Shown: positions 1-8,900 of the stretch, piece by piece
Numbering within the stretch: position 1 is the stretch's first letter
How the letters are laid out: every line of letters starts with the position of its first letter
Assembly (NCBI GenBank): GCA_014728745.1
Contig: WJLC01000073.1
Span: 1 to 24,566 of the forward strand
DNA from: Candidatus Pacearchaeota archaeon
GTDB lineage: Archaea > Nanobdellota > Nanobdellia > Pacearchaeales > GW2011-AR1
DNA length: 24,566 nt
Direction: 5' to 3'
Made by a program: the position numbers and the translations under genes
The notes under the pieces: model-generated
What the model saw: only the letters and a program-made list of their open reading frames with translations
Database searches by the model: none
Told to the model about the DNA's origin: nothing

Positions 1-14
1 ATATTTTGTTTGTA

Positions 15-257
15 TCATTTTTTGGTTTTCAAACTCCTGCTTGTCACAATTGCTATAAAAAAGAAAGCAAATAACAATATATCATTTTTAAAAATAAGAC
101 TTATAAAACCTCCTATAATTGACACACTTATTATGACCTTAAACCATTTTCTTCCTGCTTCAAGCTCTTCTTTTGTGAGTTTTGCAATAAGGTCTCCTAG
201 GGGGACGCCTAGCAAAAGAATAACAACCCCAATCATAAGTCTTATTATCTCATTCAT
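15..257 (-). CDS. Small hypothetical membrane protein (80 aa, about 3 hydrophobic segments)
   Basis: ATG-started ORF with hydrophobic stretches, divergent from the deacylase gene; TATA-like TATAAAAA about 29 nt upstream on the minus strand. Confidence 0.7.
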   Translation of the reverse strand: MNEIIRLMIGVVILLLGVPLGDLIAKLTKEELEAGRKWFKVIISVSIIGGFISLIFKNDILLFAFFFIAIVTSRSLKTKK

Positions 258-294
258 GATAATATTTAATAATCCTGGTTTTTATACTTTGTTT

Positions 295-1104
295 ATGAGC
301 AGCAATTACAAAAAATTTCTTATTGTGGCTAGCAAAAAAGATAAAGCAGGAATAAATATAACAACTGCCTTGAGCCAGCATAAGAGAAAGTACAATTTTT
401 ACTTAGTTGAAAAAGATATTTTGCATGAGGAGAATTTGAGCAAGAGAAAATTAGCTAGTTATGATTTTATAATTTTTGCATCTAAGCACAAGTCAGAAAA
501 GCAGAGAAAAACCCTTTCAATTCATGCTCCTGGAAATTGGGCAGATGCGCTCTATGGAGGAAAACAAGGCAAGATTTGCAAAACCTCTGCTCTTTTCTTA
601 AAGCAGACTTTTGATAAATTGAATAAGAATGCAAAAGATTACAACCTCAATGATTATGAAGTCACAATGGAATGCACTCATCACGGCCCTTTTATTGACA
701 AGCCTTGCATGTTTATTGAGATTGGCTCAACTGAAAAAGAATGGAAAGATAGAAATGCAGCTTTTGCTGTAGCTAGAACAATTAAGGAAATGATTGAGGG
801 ATTTAAAGAAAATCCATACAACCAAGTTGCAATTGCTATTGGGGGTCCCCACTATTGCCAGAGTTTTAACAAAATACAACTAAATTCAAATGTTGCTATT
901 TCTCACGTTATCCCAAATTATATCAACCCTGTGAGTGGAGAGATGATTAAAGAGGCTCTGGAAAAAACAGAAGAGGAAGTTGATTTTGCTTTGCTTGATT
1001 GGAAAGGAATAGGCAAGGCAAAAGACAGGAAGTTAGTAAAAGAATTGTTAGATGATTTGTATGTGAGATACAAGAGAACTTCTGAGGTTAATAAGGAATA
1101 TTAG
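295..1104 (+). CDS. dtdA: D-aminoacyl-tRNA deacylase (archaeal DTD2/GEK1 type)
   Basis: Motifs FASKH, SIHAPGN, ECTHHGP, FIEIGSTEKEW, GGPHY. Start placed at ATG 295 (MSSNYKK); the ORF-track extension 10-294 is antisense to the 15-257 gene. Confidence 0.9.
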   Translation: MSSNYKKFLIVASKKDKAGINITTALSQHKRKYNFYLVEKDILHEENLSKRKLASYDFIIFASKHKSEKQRKTLSIHAPGNWADALYGGKQGKICKTSALFLKQTFDKLNKNAKDYNLNDYEVTMECTHHGPFIDKPCMFIEIGSTEKEWKDRNAAFAVARTIKEMIEGFKENPYNQVAIAIGGPHYCQSFNKIQLNSNVAISHVIPNYINPVSGEMIKEALEKTEEEVDFALLDWKGIGKAKDRKLVKELLDDLYVRYKRTSEVNKEY

Positions 1105-1164
1105 TGTTCTTTTTATTGGATATTTTTCTTTTTGATTCAATTAATTCAGTTTTAAAGATTAAAG

Positions 1165-1246
1165 CGCCCAGAGCAGGATTCGAACCTGCGCACCCCGAAG
1201 GGTCCAGATTAGCAATCTGGTGCAATAACCACTATGCGATCTGGGC
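1165..1246 (-). tRNA. tRNA-Ser (anticodon GCT), type II with long variable arm, CCA not encoded
   Basis: Reverse complement folds as a cloverleaf: acceptor GCCCAGA/TCTGGGC, anticodon arm CCAGA-TTGCTAA-TCTGG, variable arm ACCC-TTCG-GGGT, T-loop GGTTCGAATCC, discriminator G. Confidence 0.95.
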
Positions 1247-1354
1247 ATAAATCATATGCTTTGCTGTATATTATCTGTATTTTCTCCAGTATTTAAAGAT
1301 TATTAGTAATGTGAAAAGCTGCTTGAAAAAATTATTGTGATGTTTAAAAAAGAA

Positions 1355-1468
1355 TAGCGGGGGCAGGATTTGAACACTGCGACCTCCGGGTTATGGGCCT
1401 TTCGCAACTCCAAGCATTTTACTGCCTTAAGAGATTTCGACGAGCACTCCAGACTGCTCTACCCCGCT
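1355..1468 (-). tRNA. Initiator tRNA-Met (CAT) with a 38-nt intron at position 29/30
   Basis: Acceptor AGCGGGG/CCCCGCT with A1:U72 and D-arm GAGC/GCTC. After removing 1400-1437 the anticodon arm is TCGGG-CCCATAA-CCCGG, with the three consecutive G-C pairs typical of initiators. Confidence 0.9.
1400..1437 (-). other. tRNA intron (38 nt) with BHB motif
   Basis: Central helix UCGU/GCGA, 3-nt bulges CG^A and AA^G, flanking GC/GC exon pairs and AA(U)CUC/GAGUU intron helix; the predicted cuts restore the anticodon stem. Confidence 0.88.
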
Positions 1469-1524
1469 ATATATTCTGGAGTCTTTAAACCCTTATCCAG
1501 TCAGTAAAAAATATAGCAGTTAAC

Positions 1525-2160
1525 TTATAAAGCTTTCTTTTTGAGAAATCTATTTGCTTTTTTAACATGCTTTTTATTAGAACTTCCTATTAAATCAAAC
1601 CATTTTTTTAACTCTTTTTTCCCACTAATTCTCACTCTTGTCTTTCCTCTTTCTAAATTTTGAATTGTGTGTTTTATTCCTAATTTTTCTAGAATCTCAG
1701 AAACTTGCTCTTGAGCTGGAGAAGGACACATTTTTATTTCGATTCTTGGATAAATAGTCCCATTATTATTAAATACACTTAAACACCCGTCTGTATCAAA
1801 TAATCCTCTTAACACTGGGCAAGAAAATTTGCTATTCATAAAATCTTCAGGAATTTTCATTCTTCCCCATTTTGGAGATAATTTAAGACCAATTTCTTTT
1901 ATTAGATATATTAATGCATCTTTTGTAAAAGTACAAATATCAACACAATTTTCTTTTTTCTTGTAGTGAATTTTTGGTTGAATATTCAAGACATCTTGCA
2001 TGATTTTCCTAACATGGTTAATATACTGTTTATTTCTGGAATCTAAACTTATTTTCACAACTCGATGTCTCTTAATTTTATTGCCTACTTTGCAGTTATA
2101 TTCTCCAATAGAGCCATCTCCTAACATAATTCCAATAAATTCAGCTACCCTCTTTTTCAT
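1525..2160 (-). CDS. Free-standing double-motif LAGLIDADG homing-endonuclease-like protein
   Basis: Two LAGLIDADG-type helices, AEFIGIMLGDGSI and VLRGLFDTDGCL, each retaining the acidic residue. ATG at 2160 (TTG at 2163 is an alternative). No intein splice residues and no host gene. Confidence 0.85.
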   Translation of the reverse strand: MKKRVAEFIGIMLGDGSIGEYNCKVGNKIKRHRVVKISLDSRNKQYINHVRKIMQDVLNIQPKIHYKKKENCVDICTFTKDALIYLIKEIGLKLSPKWGRMKIPEDFMNSKFSCPVLRGLFDTDGCLSVFNNNGTIYPRIEIKMCPSPAQEQVSEILEKLGIKHTIQNLERGKTRVRISGKKELKKWFDLIGSSNKKHVKKANRFLKKKAL

Positions 2161-2246
2161 CAAGCAACAATCACATAAAACTATATTAATAAGACTTTCA
2201 ATTTTGAAAGAGTTAATTATTTAATCCTTATCTACTTTTCAAAAGC

Positions 2247-3146
2247 ATGGCTAAGAAGAAAAAAGAGGGGAAAAAAGCAAAGAACAAAAAAGACAAAAAA
2301 GAAAAGGGAATTCTTTATTCAACAGGCCAGCTTGATTGTTTGAATTATTATTCAAAAGTATTTTCTAAGGTAAAATCATTTGTAAAAGACAGGGAGATTG
2401 CAACAAAAACTTTCATTCCTAAAACAGATATTGGATTTATTTTGCATAGAGGGAGTAAAGATGAGCCCCTAACATTAAAAGATATTTCTGGAAATGTTAC
2501 TAAGAAATTTTTGAAAAAACGTGTTGATAAAAAATTGCATGATGTTGAAGAGGATTTAAATGAAAAGCAAAAGTTGATTTGGAGATATTTTGTTCCTAGG
2601 AAAATGGTTGAAATGCATTATGCCTGTAATTATGAGGGCTCTGGAAAAAGTTTTGACAGGGTTTTTATTGATATTGACGCAGGAAAGAATATTGATGAAG
2701 AGGATTATATCCAAGTTGTTAAAGAGTTATTAAAGCAGATTAAAAAAGATAACAAATTAAGTGATTTGTGCTCTTTTAAGATTTACCTTCTTTGGACAGG
2801 TGCAAGTCTGCATGTTTATTTGATTTTAGATAAAAAGCTAGCATCTTCTGATTATAAAAAGTATTTTGCATTTGGAAAAGACACTCTCACAAGCAAATGG
2901 GCAAGAGCAGTTTCTGAAAAAATAGGTATTAATGTTAAGGCAGGCCATGAAAGGAAAAAAGATGCAATAATATTTGACACTTCTGCAACACCTTCAGGCA
3001 AGCTTGCAAGATGCCCTTATTCATTACATTTGAATTCAAAAGGCAAGCTCACAGGAGTTTCAGTTCCAATAAACCAAAAGGATTTGAAAAAAGGATTATT
3101 TAAGAAATTAAAAAATTTAACACCTGATGAGGCACTGAATTATTAA
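2247..3146 (+). CDS. Archaeo-eukaryotic primase (AEP) superfamily primase-polymerase, LigD Pol-domain-like, stand-alone
   Basis: Motif I FIDID, motif II TGASLHVY, motif III D followed by GKLARCPYSLH; no ligase or nuclease domain fused. Confidence 0.75.
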   Translation: MAKKKKEGKKAKNKKDKKEKGILYSTGQLDCLNYYSKVFSKVKSFVKDREIATKTFIPKTDIGFILHRGSKDEPLTLKDISGNVTKKFLKKRVDKKLHDVEEDLNEKQKLIWRYFVPRKMVEMHYACNYEGSGKSFDRVFIDIDAGKNIDEEDYIQVVKELLKQIKKDNKLSDLCSFKIYLLWTGASLHVYLILDKKLASSDYKKYFAFGKDTLTSKWARAVSEKIGINVKAGHERKKDAIIFDTSATPSGKLARCPYSLHLNSKGKLTGVSVPINQKDLKKGLFKKLKNLTPDEALNY

Positions 3147-3168
3147 GAAATAGATAATAAATTCATAA

Positions 3169-3411
3169 TTATTTTCTAGGCTTAAAGTGGGAATTTCCTT
3201 GCTTGCTAACATAACTCTCTATTTCATCAAGCAATTCATTATATCTTTTATATGCCCTTCTCTCATTGTATGGGGCATATTTAGGCTTTTCAAACTTTTC
3301 ATCATAAACAATATCTGGAAATTCTCTTAAAAGAACATGCATTTCTCTTAATAAGCTTTTTAGGCTTTTTTTGTTTACCCTATCTTTGTCCTTGTTCTGT
3401 CTAATAGCCAT
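3169..3411 (-). CDS. Hypothetical protein (80 aa)
   Basis: ATG ORF filling the intergenic space; TATA-like TTAAATAG about 29 nt upstream on the minus strand. Confidence 0.6.
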   Translation of the reverse strand: MAIRQNKDKDRVNKKSLKSLLREMHVLLREFPDIVYDEKFEKPKYAPYNERRAYKRYNELLDEIESYVSKQGNSHFKPRK

Positions 3412-3483
3412 AAAGCAAGTTTATCCCTGAATCTATTTAAGTTTATATGTGATGATAAGACTTGAACAAATGATCCTAATCTT

Positions 3484-3687
3484 TTGATAATCTCAAAACT
3501 TAAAAATGACTATATCTTCTTTTTAGATACAGATAAAAAGACTTCACAATTTGCAAAACATTTTAAAGTATGTTGGAAGTCTTCTTTTAAGAGACTTAAA
3601 GAATTAGAAAAATTAGGTTTAGTAAAAAGAAAAGACAATAAAAAATGGATAAGATTGAAAATAAACAAGAAGATTCTTGTCATTTAA
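3484..3687 (+). CDS. Small winged-helix-turn-helix-like protein, 5' end uncertain
   Basis: TSQFAKHFKVCWKSSFKRLKELEKLGLVKR resembles the recognition helix plus wing of archaeal wHTH regulators. Only a TTG start is in frame, and the 3' end overlaps the rnhB start. Confidence 0.5.
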   Translation: MIISKLKNDYIFFLDTDKKTSQFAKHFKVCWKSSFKRLKELEKLGLVKRKDNKKWIRLKINKKILVI

Positions 3688-4717: not shown

Positions 4718-7585
4718 ATGGTCTATATTAAAAAACTGGTGATGCATGGCTTCAAAAGCTTTGTTAGAAAAACAGAAATACCTTTTACTCCAGGAATAAA
4801 TGTGATATTAGGGCCAAATGGCTCAGGAAAAAGCAATATCTCAGATGCATTGTGTTTTGTTTTAGGAAGACTCTCTATAAAATCAATGCGTGCAGCAAAA
4901 GCAAAGAATCTTATATTTTTAGGAACAAAAAAGGTCTCAAAAGCTAAAAAAGCATCTGTAGAATTGGTTTTTGATAATTCAGACAGCACTTTTTCAATTG
5001 ATGACAAAGAGGTCTCTATTAAAAGAATTGTTAAGAGAAATGGGCAAAGCACATATAAAATAAACAATAAAACAAAGACAAGACAGGAAATAATTGCATT
5101 GCTTGCTCAAGCAGGGATTGACCCTAATGGATTTAATATAATTCTTCAAGGAGAGATACAGAATTTTGTGAATATGCACAATGAAGAAAGAAGAGAAATT
5201 ATTGAAGAAGTGTCTGGAATCTCTATTTATGAATCTCGTAAAGCAAAGTCCTTAAAGGAATTGAAAAAAACAGATGAGAGACTAAAAGAAGTGTTGGCTG
5301 TTTTGAGAGAAAGAACATCTTATTTGAATAATCTTGAGAAAGAAAGAAAACAGGCTCTTAAATTCAAGAAATTAGAAAAAGATGTTAAAAAGTACAAAGC
5401 AAGTATAATTAATGCTGATCTCAACAAAAAGAAAAAGGAAATACAAAAGATAAATAATGATATTGAAAAAAAGACAAAAGAAATTGGTAAGGTAAAAAAA
5501 CAAATAAATGAATTAGAGACCCAGATTAGGAATTATGAATTAAAAATAGATTCAATCAATAATACTATTCAAAAATCTACTGGTTTAGAGCAGGAAAAAC
5601 TCAACCAGGAAATTGCTAACTTAAGAGCAGATTTAGCAGGATTAAATGTTAAGTCTGAAAATTTTGGAAGAAAGCTTAATGAAATTGATAATAAAAAGCA
5701 GGAGCTTCAAGATAGCATCAAAGAAGATGAAGAGGAGTTAAAAGAGCTTGAGAAAACAACTTCTTCTGCATCTAGCAAATCCAAAAAGAAAAAAGATATT
5801 GATGCAAAAAAGCAAAAACTTGAGGAGCTTGAAAAACAGAGAAAAAAATTCTACACAATGAAGGCTGAGTTAAAAGCAGTCAAGGAAAGACTTCAAGACA
5901 AGCAGTCTGTTCTTCAGGGTTATGAAACTGAATCTGATTATCTTGTCAAGCAAGTTGAAAATCTTGTGAAGGAATTGTATGATAAAAAAACCAACACCAA
6001 GATAATTTCAGATATTAAAGTAAGCCTGCAAAATAAAAAAGATAAAATAAAAGAACTTGATAAAAATCAAAATTCTTTGTATAAGAAGCTTCATACAAAT
6101 CAACATGAGATTAAAAAGAAAAATAACCTTGTTAAAGACATAAAAGATATGGATGTATGTCCTTTGTGTAAAAATAAAATAACTAAAGAGCATATAAAAG
6201 AAATAAAGGATAAAGCTCAACCACAGATAAAACAATTGAAAAAGCAAATAGAATCTGCAGAAGATAAATTAGCAGATATTCAAAAACAAAAATCCAAATT
6301 AAGCCAGGAAATAGACTCTTTAACAGAGGAGCTTTCAAAAAGAGAATCTGATTTAGTTAAAATTTCTAATATAAACAATAAAAAAGACCAAATTAAGAAA
6401 CTTCATGAAAATACTGAAGGAATTAAAGAAGAAATAAAAGAGCTAAAAAAGAAAAAGAGTTCCTTAGAAAAGAATTTTGATGAGAATTCTAATATTGAAA
6501 AAAGATATGAGGAAGCCAGAATAGAGGTTCAAGAAATATCATTGAGAAACAAGGAGAATATTGATTCAGAGATATCTTTTAAGAAAAGAGAATTTGAAAG
6601 AAATAAAATAGAATTAAAGCAGTTGAAAAGAGATGAAGAAGACCTAAAAGAGGATTTAGCATCAATCAAAAGCAGAATAAGTGAAAAAGAAAAGCGTCTC
6701 AATAACAAGAAAAAACAAGATGAGGAATTAAACAAGAAATTCCAGAAAATGATCGCTGACAGAGATGCTTTGCAGCTGAAGATAAGAAAAGGTGATTCAG
6801 ATTTGTCTCTAAAGCAAAACATTGTCTATAATCTTGAACAAGACATGAATGATTACAAGATATCCAAGGCAAGAGTCAAGGCAGAATTAGATGGTCTTGA
6901 GACAGAGATGAAAGAATTTGAGGGTGTTGAAATAATAAAATCAACTAAAGAGAGCCTATTACATAAGCTTCACAGAACACAAGATACTCTGAATAAGATT
7001 GGGAGTGTTAATTTAAAATCATTAGAAGTTTATGATGAAATTAAGAAAGAATACGATTCTATTAATGACAAGGTAGAAGTTCTAAAAGGAGAAAAAGAGG
7101 ATATTTTAAAGGTTATTCATGAGATTGACATTAAGAAGAAAAAGACTTTCTTGAATACATTAAAGGACTTAAATGAGCTTTTTTCTAGAAATTTCTCTCA
7201 ATTATCTTCTAAAGGACAGGTTTTTCTTGAATTAGAAAATAAAAAAGAACCTTTTGAAGCAGGGGTTAATATAATTGTAAAAACAGGACATGGGAAATAC
7301 TTTGATGTAACATCATTATCAGGAGGAGAGCAGACACTTGTAGCTTTATCATTAATATTTGCAATCCAGGAATTAAAGCCGTATTGCTTTTATATTTTAG
7401 ATGAGATAGATGCAGCCCTTGACAAGAGAAACTCTGCAAGGCTAGCTAGATTACTTAATAAATACATGAAAAAAGGCCAATACATTGTAATAAGCCACAA
7501 TGATGAGGTAATAAGCAAGGCAACAAACCTTTATGGTGTTAGCATGCATGATGGGGTCAGTAAGATAATTAGTTTGAAATTATAG
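4718..7585 (+). CDS. smc: SMC-family ATPase (955 aa) with Smc-type heads, a central CPLC zinc-hook-like motif and no recognisable hinge
   Basis: GFKSF, Walker A GPNGSGKSN, Q-loop ILQGEI, signature LSGGEQ, Walker B/D-loop ILDEIDAALD, H-loop ISHN. Long K/E-rich coiled coils, with CPLC at aa 481-484. Confidence 0.9.
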   Translation: MVYIKKLVMHGFKSFVRKTEIPFTPGINVILGPNGSGKSNISDALCFVLGRLSIKSMRAAKAKNLIFLGTKKVSKAKKASVELVFDNSDSTFSIDDKEVSIKRIVKRNGQSTYKINNKTKTRQEIIALLAQAGIDPNGFNIILQGEIQNFVNMHNEERREIIEEVSGISIYESRKAKSLKELKKTDERLKEVLAVLRERTSYLNNLEKERKQALKFKKLEKDVKKYKASIINADLNKKKKEIQKINNDIEKKTKEIGKVKKQINELETQIRNYELKIDSINNTIQKSTGLEQEKLNQEIANLRADLAGLNVKSENFGRKLNEIDNKKQELQDSIKEDEEELKELEKTTSSASSKSKKKKDIDAKKQKLEELEKQRKKFYTMKAELKAVKERLQDKQSVLQGYETESDYLVKQVENLVKELYDKKTNTKIISDIKVSLQNKKDKIKELDKNQNSLYKKLHTNQHEIKKKNNLVKDIKDMDVCPLCKNKITKEHIKEIKDKAQPQIKQLKKQIESAEDKLADIQKQKSKLSQEIDSLTEELSKRESDLVKISNINNKKDQIKKLHENTEGIKEEIKELKKKKSSLEKNFDENSNIEKRYEEARIEVQEISLRNKENIDSEISFKKREFERNKIELKQLKRDEEDLKEDLASIKSRISEKEKRLNNKKKQDEELNKKFQKMIADRDALQLKIRKGDSDLSLKQNIVYNLEQDMNDYKISKARVKAELDGLETEMKEFEGVEIIKSTKESLLHKLHRTQDTLNKIGSVNLKSLEVYDEIKKEYDSINDKVEVLKGEKEDILKVIHEIDIKKKKTFLNTLKDLNELFSRNFSQLSSKGQVFLELENKKEPFEAGVNIIVKTGHGKYFDVTSLSGGEQTLVALSLIFAIQELKPYCFYILDEIDAALDKRNSARLARLLNKYMKKGQYIVISHNDEVISKATNLYGVSMHDGVSKIISLKL

Positions 7586-7683: not shown

Positions 7684-8823
7684 TTAGTAATAGCTTTCTC
7701 CGAAGTCTTCGCTTCTTTCTGGTTTTCTTCCAATTAAGACAACTAACACTATTAGCAATACTAAAAATACTATTGCCAAGATAACTGTTAGAACAACAAC
7801 TGGACTTGCAACAGAACTTTGATCTTCAGTTGCACTAAATGTGAAAGAGCTTACAACTTCCCCGTTCATGTTGAATACATTAACAATGTACTCAGCTGAG
7901 TCAGGATTAACTTCGAAAGCTTTGCTTGATCCAGCAGGAACAGTCACAAAGTTTTCTTGTTCTGGTGTAACAACTCTATAAACTTGAAGCTTTTCAGTTG
8001 GATTTACTATAAGTAAATCACTTCCAGCTCTGAAAACGCTTTCTGGGAAATCGTTTTCAATTATAAGTTGTTTAGCCTTGCTTACTTCAAGATCATCATT
8101 CCATACTTCAATCTCCAAAGTGTAGACACCTGGAGCTGCATCGTAAGGAACCTGAAGATTAACTCTTGCACTAGTTGTAGTAGTGTCATCGTCATCATCT
8201 TCATCTTCTAGTGAAACAAGGTCACCAACGTAAATACTTCTTTCAACACCATCAAGAGCTATAAGGTTTCCTCTTACATACATATCATCTAAGTCATTAT
8301 AACCAATGTTCTTAAGTACAACATCTACTGGGATTGTTTCACCAGCATCTATTGAGTTAGGGGTTACAATTGACAAGACGTCTGCATTGTATGAAGGTCT
8401 TTGAACTCTCAAAGAGTACTCAGCTTCAGTTTTATAATCACTGCCTTTCTTAACAGTAACAACTAAAGACACATCATCACTAACTTGATCCTTAAGTTCA
8501 TAAGGAATTTCAACAGTTAGGGATTTGCTATATCTTAAATCTTGTTCTACATCAAAAGACGCAGAGATTTCAGAACTGTCAGCTTTATCGCCTTCAATAA
8601 CTGCTTTAACAGTAACATCAGATGCATCAACTAATGAATTAAATGTTACCTTAACAGTAACACTTTCACCAGCAATAACACTTAAGTCACCATTAGAAGC
8701 AAGTTCATCGTCAACCTTAACTTCCATGTTGTTAGTTAAATTTTCAGCAGCACTAACTGTAGCTACTAAAAACATAACTGTTACAATTGCCAAAATTGGA
8801 ACAAATAGTTTCTTTGTTTCCAT
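7684..8823 (-). CDS. Secreted, C-terminally membrane-anchored cell-surface (S-layer-like) protein
   Basis: Signal peptide METKKLFVPILAIVTVMFLVATVSA, acidic beta-rich Ig/CARDB-like body, C-terminal TM helix and short tail ending GESYY. Start at 8823 preferred over 8847. Confidence 0.75.
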   Translation of the reverse strand: METKKLFVPILAIVTVMFLVATVSAAENLTNNMEVKVDDELASNGDLSVIAGESVTVKVTFNSLVDASDVTVKAVIEGDKADSSEISASFDVEQDLRYSKSLTVEIPYELKDQVSDDVSLVVTVKKGSDYKTEAEYSLRVQRPSYNADVLSIVTPNSIDAGETIPVDVVLKNIGYNDLDDMYVRGNLIALDGVERSIYVGDLVSLEDEDDDDDTTTTSARVNLQVPYDAAPGVYTLEIEVWNDDLEVSKAKQLIIENDFPESVFRAGSDLLIVNPTEKLQVYRVVTPEQENFVTVPAGSSKAFEVNPDSAEYIVNVFNMNGEVVSSFTFSATEDQSSVASPVVVLTVILAIVFLVLLIVLVVLIGRKPERSEDFGESYY

Positions 8824-8900
8824 TTTTGAGGTGTTTTTTGTATACATTTTAATTAATACAGAAAACTTTTGTTTTCCGTGTATTTATACATAAGAAATTC

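Follow-up and report, generated by a model that had tools for sequence, protein, structure and literature searches.

The only Smc protein found in the genome of a Candidatus Pacearchaeota archaeon, a member of the DPANN phylum Nanobdellota, very probably serves as the ATPase of an Smc-ScpA-ScpB condensin in which a Rad50-type CPxC zinc hook has taken the place of the hinge. Its gene is an open reading frame (ORF) on the forward strand at positions 4718 to 7585 of contig WJLC01000073.1 (assembly GCA_014728745.1) and encodes 955 amino acids (aa). The window analyzed here is the whole stretch of 24,566 nucleotides (nt) presented above; it is contig C66 in a genome of 606 kb that is 76% complete. 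The protein has Smc heads and arms, no hinge, a conserved Rad50-like hook at its apex, and intact ATPase motifs; genes for the partner proteins are present, and its heads are placed among Smc proteins in a phylogenetic tree. Zinc binding, homodimerization through the hook, and chromosome folding are the activities that this architecture would imply. Proteins of this kind are labeled in the source annotations either as [quoted passage not shown] or simply as a "hypothetical protein."

The heads are of the Smc type, as had been proposed in a first-pass annotation of the window. GFKSF is found at aa 11 to 15 and ILDEIDAALD at aa 893 to 902, and the Walker A, Q-loop, signature, Walker B, D-loop, and H-loop motifs of an Smc-type ABC ATPase head are all present. 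In an alignment of 68 full-length sequences, the residues of these motifs are all invariant, and the Walker B glutamate is intact. The Pfam model SMC_N covers aa 3 to 948 (174 bits). In searches with NCBIfam models, the protein scored 546 bits against both prokaryotic SMC equivalogs, with each match split into two stretches that skip the hinge. Because the hinge is missing, these scores fall under the equivalog cutoffs of 729.4 (TIGR02169) and 567.35 (TIGR02168) bits. In contrast, scores against the Rad50 models were 77 to 140 bits (cutoffs, 700 to 1087 bits), so that the heads do not qualify as Rad50 type. Likewise, the protein does not fit the ASRP family (ClsN/Sph), with 153 bits against a cutoff of 300 bits (NF045487) and a length of 955 aa versus ~600 aa.

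No SMC hinge (PF06470) was detected by Pfam in this protein or anywhere else in the host genome. As a control for this search, a phylum-wide sample of 150 genomes, all from one class, was examined, and the hinge was detected in 145 of them. A full-length AlphaFold2 model, computed from the 68-sequence alignment (mean predicted local distance difference test [pLDDT] score of 80.3), contains no globular domain; between the head halves (aa 169 to 829) it consists of helices only, apart from short breaks and the apex turn, in agreement with the continuous coiled coil previously described for this protein. The model forms one long helical hairpin with a tight turn at aa 478 to 489, and the short breaks in the two arms are paired (206 to 215 with 762 to 767, 346 to 356 with 610 to 616, and 420 to 426 with 590 to 592).

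The extent of the replacement was evident from a pairwise profile alignment with the nearest hinge-bearing Smc (P0162), in which aa 1 to 478 correspond to P0162 aa 1 to 484 and aa 488 to 955 correspond to P0162 aa 689 to 1149. Approximately 9 aa thus stand in place of ~204 aa of hinge, while both arms are collinear and their length is kept, which makes the term "chimeric," as applied to this condensin in the first-pass annotation, an apt one. Hinge-bearing sister Smc proteins are 1,130 to 1,170 aa long, so that the present protein is shorter by ~190 to 215 aa, close to the ~200 aa given in that annotation. As in canonical Smc, the arms form a long antiparallel coiled coil, and they have the same length as those of the hinge-bearing sisters. 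Arm length is also nearly fixed within the hook-Smc family. The first cysteine follows Walker A at a distance of 438 aa in 80 of 135 family members, and the second cysteine is separated from LSGGE by 382 aa in 120 of 135. A periodic constraint on arm length has been described for Bacillus subtilis Smc and also held for an engineered hook chimera (PMC5344682). The near-fixed arm length of the archaeal family fits this periodic constraint and the idea of a "tuned arm."

Shortened arms were observed in hinge-bearing Smc proteins of related archaea, at ~820 to 840 aa (P0211, P0218, P0219, P0236, and P0244) and ~943 to 963 aa (P0153, P0157, and P0221). Hinge-bearing Smc lengths seem to cluster in discrete classes of roughly 830, 950, and 1,150 aa, which is reminiscent of the periodic arm-length modes of engineered Smc (PMC5344682).

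The apex itself resembles the zinc hook of Rad50. The protein contains four cysteines and a single CxxC motif, CPLC at aa 481 to 484, which lies at the midpoint of the chain (fraction of length, 0.50), as first noted from the sequence, and at the tip of the coiled coil, where Rad50/SbcC proteins carry their hook. When all PDB sequences were searched with an apex profile (49 sequences, aa 421 to 544), it matched the zinc hooks of Pyrococcus furiosus Rad50 (6ZFF, E value of 7e-11; 1L8D, E value of 2e-10; 44 to 45 bits) and that of human RAD50 (5GOX, E value of 5e-4). No unrelated coiled coil exceeded 21 bits, and the best of these had an E value of 2e-3. In the alignment, D-x-CPLC-K-x-K-I-T-K-E-H of Smc stands opposite K-CPVC-G-R-E-L-T-D-E-H of Pyrococcus Rad50, giving the common motif CPxC-x3-[IL]-T-x-E-H. 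When folded on its own with AlphaFold2, the apex was modeled as a hairpin with a pLDDT of 92.9. A Foldseek search of this model against the PDB returned Rad50 hooks at all of ranks 1 to 5, including the rod-form P. furiosus hook (6zff; template modeling [TM] score of 0.77 to 0.78 and root mean square deviation of 2.4 to 2.7 Å). A prediction of two apex copies (aa 421 to 544) in complex with zinc scored 0.38, under the mark of 0.42, with controls at 0.00 to 0.01, an outcome that weighs neither for nor against dimerization.

Conservation of the CxxC in orthologs, which the first-pass annotation had named as a check on its proposal, was complete. All 120 nearest homologs (62 to 76% identity, mostly 952 aa) contain exactly one CxxC, and it is always CP[LIV]C. 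For wider relatives, cluster representatives at 50% identity were searched exhaustively and the best 150 matches were taken. Among these, every hinge-less full-length protein (946 to 1,023 aa) carries CPxC at a fraction of 0.47 to 0.50 of its length, down to 32% identity, while relatives of 1,100 to 1,200 aa have the SMC hinge and no CxxC. The motif is present in 39 of 39 hook-type cluster representatives and thus, with the 120 nearest sequences included, in 159 homologs, a pattern that goes well past anything expected by chance. Between aa 215 and 760 of the 68-sequence alignment, invariance is confined to three columns, C481, P482, and C484; T489 and H492 reach a conservation of at least 90%.

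In a sample of 200 genomes from the order to which the window belongs, a full-length collinear hook-Smc ortholog was found in 153 of the 155 genomes of the window's GTDB family. As the same architecture recurs in these genomes and in thousands of metagenomic proteins, an assembly or annotation artifact that deleted the hinge was rejected as an explanation. The open frames of the orthologs are mostly 952 to 1,043 aa long, or ~1,490 to 1,516 aa where an intein is present. Intein-bearing hook-Smc orthologs of ~1,480 to 1,516 aa (P0025, P0031, P0123, and P0129, and those of genomes G296, G270, G248, and G252) carry LAGLIDADG and intein-splicing domains right after Walker A, and their alignment to the 955-aa Smc picks up again at aa 36 to 38.

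Genomes without a detectable SMC hinge in the phylum survey were the window's own, all three sampled genomes of the same GTDB family (98 to 100% complete), G016, and G059. The last two were rejected as further hook lineages: in G016 the Smc is a fragment cut at a contig end, and the closed 0.5-Mb genome of G059 has no Smc-strength SMC_N match, only weaker Rad50-like and ABC-type ones. The check was also made on five further families in the order, with one genome per family, and none of the five genomes had a hinge. Two of these carry a hook (CPTC and CPVC) and three have no CxxC; in two of the latter, the Smc is ~790 to 810 aa long and lacks hinge and hook alike.

A maximum-likelihood tree of the head halves (119 rows) was rooted on the host genome's own Rad50, a distant outgroup on a very long branch. 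In this tree, 23 hook-type proteins and 6 apex-less ones form a single clade (Shimodaira-Hasegawa-like approximate likelihood ratio test [SH-aLRT] value of 100) nested among hinge-bearing Nanoarchaeia Smc proteins. The head phylogeny that had been suggested as a test therefore groups the heads with Smc, far from the Rad50 of the same genome. Elsewhere in the tree lies another hook-Smc lineage, a divergent one comprising P0261 and L015; a single clade for both lineages was not rejected by an approximately unbiased (AU) test (P = 0.34). The sister-family genome G165 encodes two hook-type Smc proteins. One is of the mainstream type (CPKC) and is split over two contig ends (L020, G165:C10:24800-26482; L021, G165:C13:16500-19223), and the other is a divergent 984-aa paralog (CPVC; L015, G165:C20:300-3900) that is related to P0261 and scored 549 bits against SMC_prok_A. 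The presence of two Smc paralogs in one prokaryote opens the possibility of heterodimers.

The genes scpA, scpB, and mre11 are absent from the window, in line with the first-pass annotation, which had seen none of them adjacent to smc, and all three were found on other contigs when the genome was searched as it had suggested. ScpA is encoded on contig C9 (32.9 and 25.7 bits) and ScpB on contig C21 (118 bits); by gene presence, the genome thus holds the partners of an Smc-ScpAB condensin. ScpA and ScpB are also present in both other hook-type genomes checked. On contig C57 (L010, G000:C57:1-5000), a 682-aa Rad50 (ORF 265 to 2313, reverse strand) lies directly downstream of a 388-aa Mre11 (ORF 2371 to 3537, reverse strand). 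In this short Rad50, the hook motif is CPTC and lies at aa 350. The remaining SMC_N matches in the host genome are weak and of the ABC type. As the genome encodes a separate Rad50-Mre11 pair as well as ScpA and ScpB, the 955-aa protein must be regarded as its Smc and not as its Rad50, and the condensin interpretation is strengthened. The gene order RNase HII, smc, convergent Ig-like surface-protein gene, and Toprim gene is kept in relatives.

Compared with known systems, the protein shares with canonical Smc-ScpAB (TIGR02169/TIGR02168; PF02463 plus PF06470) its heads, ATPase motifs, arm length, and a genome encoding ScpA and ScpB, and it is nested within Nanoarchaeia Smc; it differs in having a CPxC turn where the canonical protein has a hinge of ~200 aa. 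With the Rad50/SbcC hook (PF04423; PDB entries 1L8D, 6ZFF, and 5GOX), it shares the motif and its place at the tip of an antiparallel coiled coil, but its heads are not of the Rad50 type and no Mre11 is adjacent. The closest counterpart is engineered. A B. subtilis Smc(Zh) chimera, in which a P. furiosus Rad50 hook was substituted for the hinge, supported normal growth and kept the arm-length constraints of the wild type (Burmann et al. 2017, PMC5344682); its heads and arms remain those of Smc, so that the design is the same. Unlike that chimera, the present Smc is natural, ancient, archaeal, and fixed across its lineage. In a swap of the opposite kind, fission-yeast Rad50 carrying a MukB hinge was functional (PMC6969161). 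ASRP proteins (ClsN/coalescin and Sph1/Sph2; NF045487) are also archaeal coiled-coil ABC ATPases with an apex zinc-hook motif (PMC9389158), although of ~600 aa and with divergent heads. A CPxCG-like hook is also found in many Lamassu LmuB proteins, which are likewise coiled-coil ABC ATPases (PMC10586767); however, LmuB is ~650 aa long, has short arms, usually carries an E-to-Q change in Walker B, and is encoded in a defense operon, none of which is true of this Smc.

Some relatives have lost the hook as well. Smc proteins of ~780 to 805 aa with neither hinge nor hook were identified at L011 (G154:C9:11900-14900) and L013 (G156:C31:5800-8800) and as P0141, P0143, P0146, and P0147. In these ~800-aa proteins, the apex and ~75 aa of each arm are gone and no cysteine remains at the tip, and they are nested inside the hook clade.

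Several observations weigh against the assignment of the 955-aa protein as a condensin ATPase closed by a zinc hook. The host is uncultured and its genome is incomplete. The ~800-aa relatives lost the hook, yet their genomes have retained ScpA and ScpB, so that apex closure by zinc may not be indispensable. In the Pfam scan proposed in the first-pass annotation, SMC_N was found and SMC_hinge was absent, as expected, but the anticipated Rad50_zn_hook match (aa 459 to 511) reached only 19 bits, under the cutoff of 24.3 bits. The Foldseek E values for the apex are weak (1.5e-2 at best), because helical hairpins carry little information, and the order of the hits is therefore a hint only. Finally, likeness to the Rad50 of the same genome is weak (BLASTP E value of 0.01 over 38 residues), and so does not point to a donor of the hook.

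The last of these points bears on the origin of the hook. Most likely, the hook segment of an archaeal Rad50 recombined into smc near the base of the order. Alternatively, the CPxC apex might have arisen within smc by convergence after deletion of the hinge and owe nothing to Rad50, in which case zinc could still be bound. The low similarity to the host's own hook would be expected under convergence, the conserved core (CPxC-x3-[IL]-T-x-E-H) is short, and coiled-coil composition may supply much of the profile score. However, the apex profile scored P. furiosus Rad50 hooks well above any unrelated coiled coil, the shared motif reaches eight residues past the second cysteine, and Rad50 hooks came first in the structural ranking. 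We therefore consider convergence unlikely and favor descent of the apex from a Rad50 hook.

A further proposal concerns the partner of the hook rather than its source. As the same cell makes two proteins with a CPxC hook, heterotypic pairing is conceivable. The CPLC hook of Smc and the CPTC hook of the short Rad50 could pair with each other or bridge complexes through zinc, in the way proposed for Rad50 tethering, and condensin might thereby be coupled to break repair, or Smc complexes might be linked in trans. We regard such pairing as quite improbable, and likewise the related idea that the ~800-aa forms show Smc-ScpAB to be capable of working with its apex left without any covalent-like closure.

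Retention of ScpA and ScpB alongside an Smc without apex cysteines suggests that this group can do without apex linkage and that the chemistry of the apex can change readily in its evolution. It would thus be compatible with a role of the two cysteines as an intramolecular disulfide or as a redox or metal sensor at the tip of a monomeric hairpin; ScpA, at the heads, would then be all that keeps the complex together. Such a role is very unlikely for the hook-type proteins, as Cys, Pro, and Cys are absolutely conserved along with flanks of the Rad50 type. Furthermore, a single chain offers two zinc ligands, as in Rad50, where a second chain completes the site, and dimerization through the hinge is essential in studied Smc proteins (PMC5344682). 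It is extremely improbable that the protein is a repair or defense ATPase (a Rad50 paralog or one of the ASRP/ClsN or Lamassu LmuB type) instead of a housekeeping condensin: elsewhere, it is Rad50, ASRP, and many LmuB proteins that typically carry hooks (PMC9389158, PMC10586767), and scpA and scpB are not adjacent, but the heads score far higher on SMC than on ASRP or Rad50 models and are nested within Smc in the tree, this is the sole Smc of a genome that also encodes ScpA, ScpB, and a separate Rad50-Mre11, the arms have canonical Smc length, the Walker B glutamate is intact, and synteny with housekeeping genes (RNase HII and Toprim) is conserved.

In the condensin with a zinc-hook apex that we propose, the arm tips of two Smc chains would be held together by a single zinc ion, to which both chains would contribute C481 and C484 as its four cysteine ligands. 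The heads would be bridged by ScpA, to which ScpB would bind. Closed in this way into a ring or rod, the complex would work on chromosomal DNA by means of the usual ATPase cycle of Smc. The features of the gene and its convergent neighbor are listed in Table 1.

Table 1. Coordinates of the hook-type smc gene, its parts, and the adjacent convergent gene in the window
Feature	Position	Strand	Remarks
smc gene, hook type	4718..7585	+	955 aa plus stop; 546 bits on SMC_prok_A and SMC_prok_B; full-length collinear orthologs in 153/155 same-GTDB-family genomes
N-terminal half of ABC ATPase head, aa 1-168	4718..5221	+	SMC_N from aa 3; AlphaFold2 beta-rich head, pLDDT 79-90
Walker A GPNGSGKS	aa 32-39, nt 4811-4834	+	G32, N34, G35, G37, K38 invariant
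Q-loop Q144	within 4718..5221	+	Invariant residue
Ascending arm helix, aa 169-477	5222..6148	+	AlphaFold2 secondary structure; breaks at aa 206-215, 346-356, 420-426
Zinc-hook turn, aa 478-489	6149..6184	+	CPLC aa 481-484 (nt 6158-6169), then T489 and H492; AlphaFold2 turn; Rad50-hook profile match
Descending arm helix, aa 490-829	6185..7204	+	AlphaFold2 secondary structure; breaks at aa 590-592, 610-616, 735-743, 762-767
C-terminal half of head, aa 830-955	7205..7582	+	SMC_N match to aa 948
Signature LSGGE	aa 867-871, nt 7316-7330	+	S868, G869, G870, E871 invariant
Walker B and D-loop FYILDEIDAALD	aa 891-902, nt 7388-7423	+	D895, E896, D898, L901, D902 invariant
H-loop H927	within 7205..7582	+	Invariant residue
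387-aa gene convergent with smc	7684-8847	-	No Pfam match; resembles Ig-like (FixG_C, NPCBM_assoc, CARDB) Nanobdellota surface proteins; place next to smc kept in relatives

Two other ORFs of the window were noted. A 364-aa ORF (positions 10 to 1104, forward strand) has its D-aminoacyl-tRNA deacylase domain confined to aa 150 to 351, with no assignment for the first ~150 aa, and a free-standing 212-aa ORF resembling LAGLIDADG homing endonucleases (1525 to 2163, reverse strand) lies between the D-aminoacyl-tRNA deacylase and Prim-Pol-like genes.

A 2023 review defined SMC by the hinge and kleisin/KITE partners and Rad50 by the zinc hook and Mre11 (PMC10586767). The protein described here is a natural one that crosses this line, as it combines a hook with kleisin and KITE partners. 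A natural hook-bearing Smc was not found described in the literature searched, although absence there is no proof that none has been reported, and among published proteins the exchange of hinge for hook is known from engineered ones only. In several models of DNA loading and loop extrusion, the hinge has a role of its own: it binds DNA, serves as an entry gate, or makes contact with the heads. An archaeal order without a hinge represents a natural experiment in this respect. By analogy with the B. subtilis chimera, which suggested as much (PMC5344682), it argues that the apex may need only to hold two correctly phased arms together. The forms with neither hinge nor hook further prompt one to ask whether the apex must be closed in the first place. 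Overall, the hook-type Smc is ~200 aa smaller than its canonical counterpart and may suit structural and single-molecule work on Smc-ScpAB.

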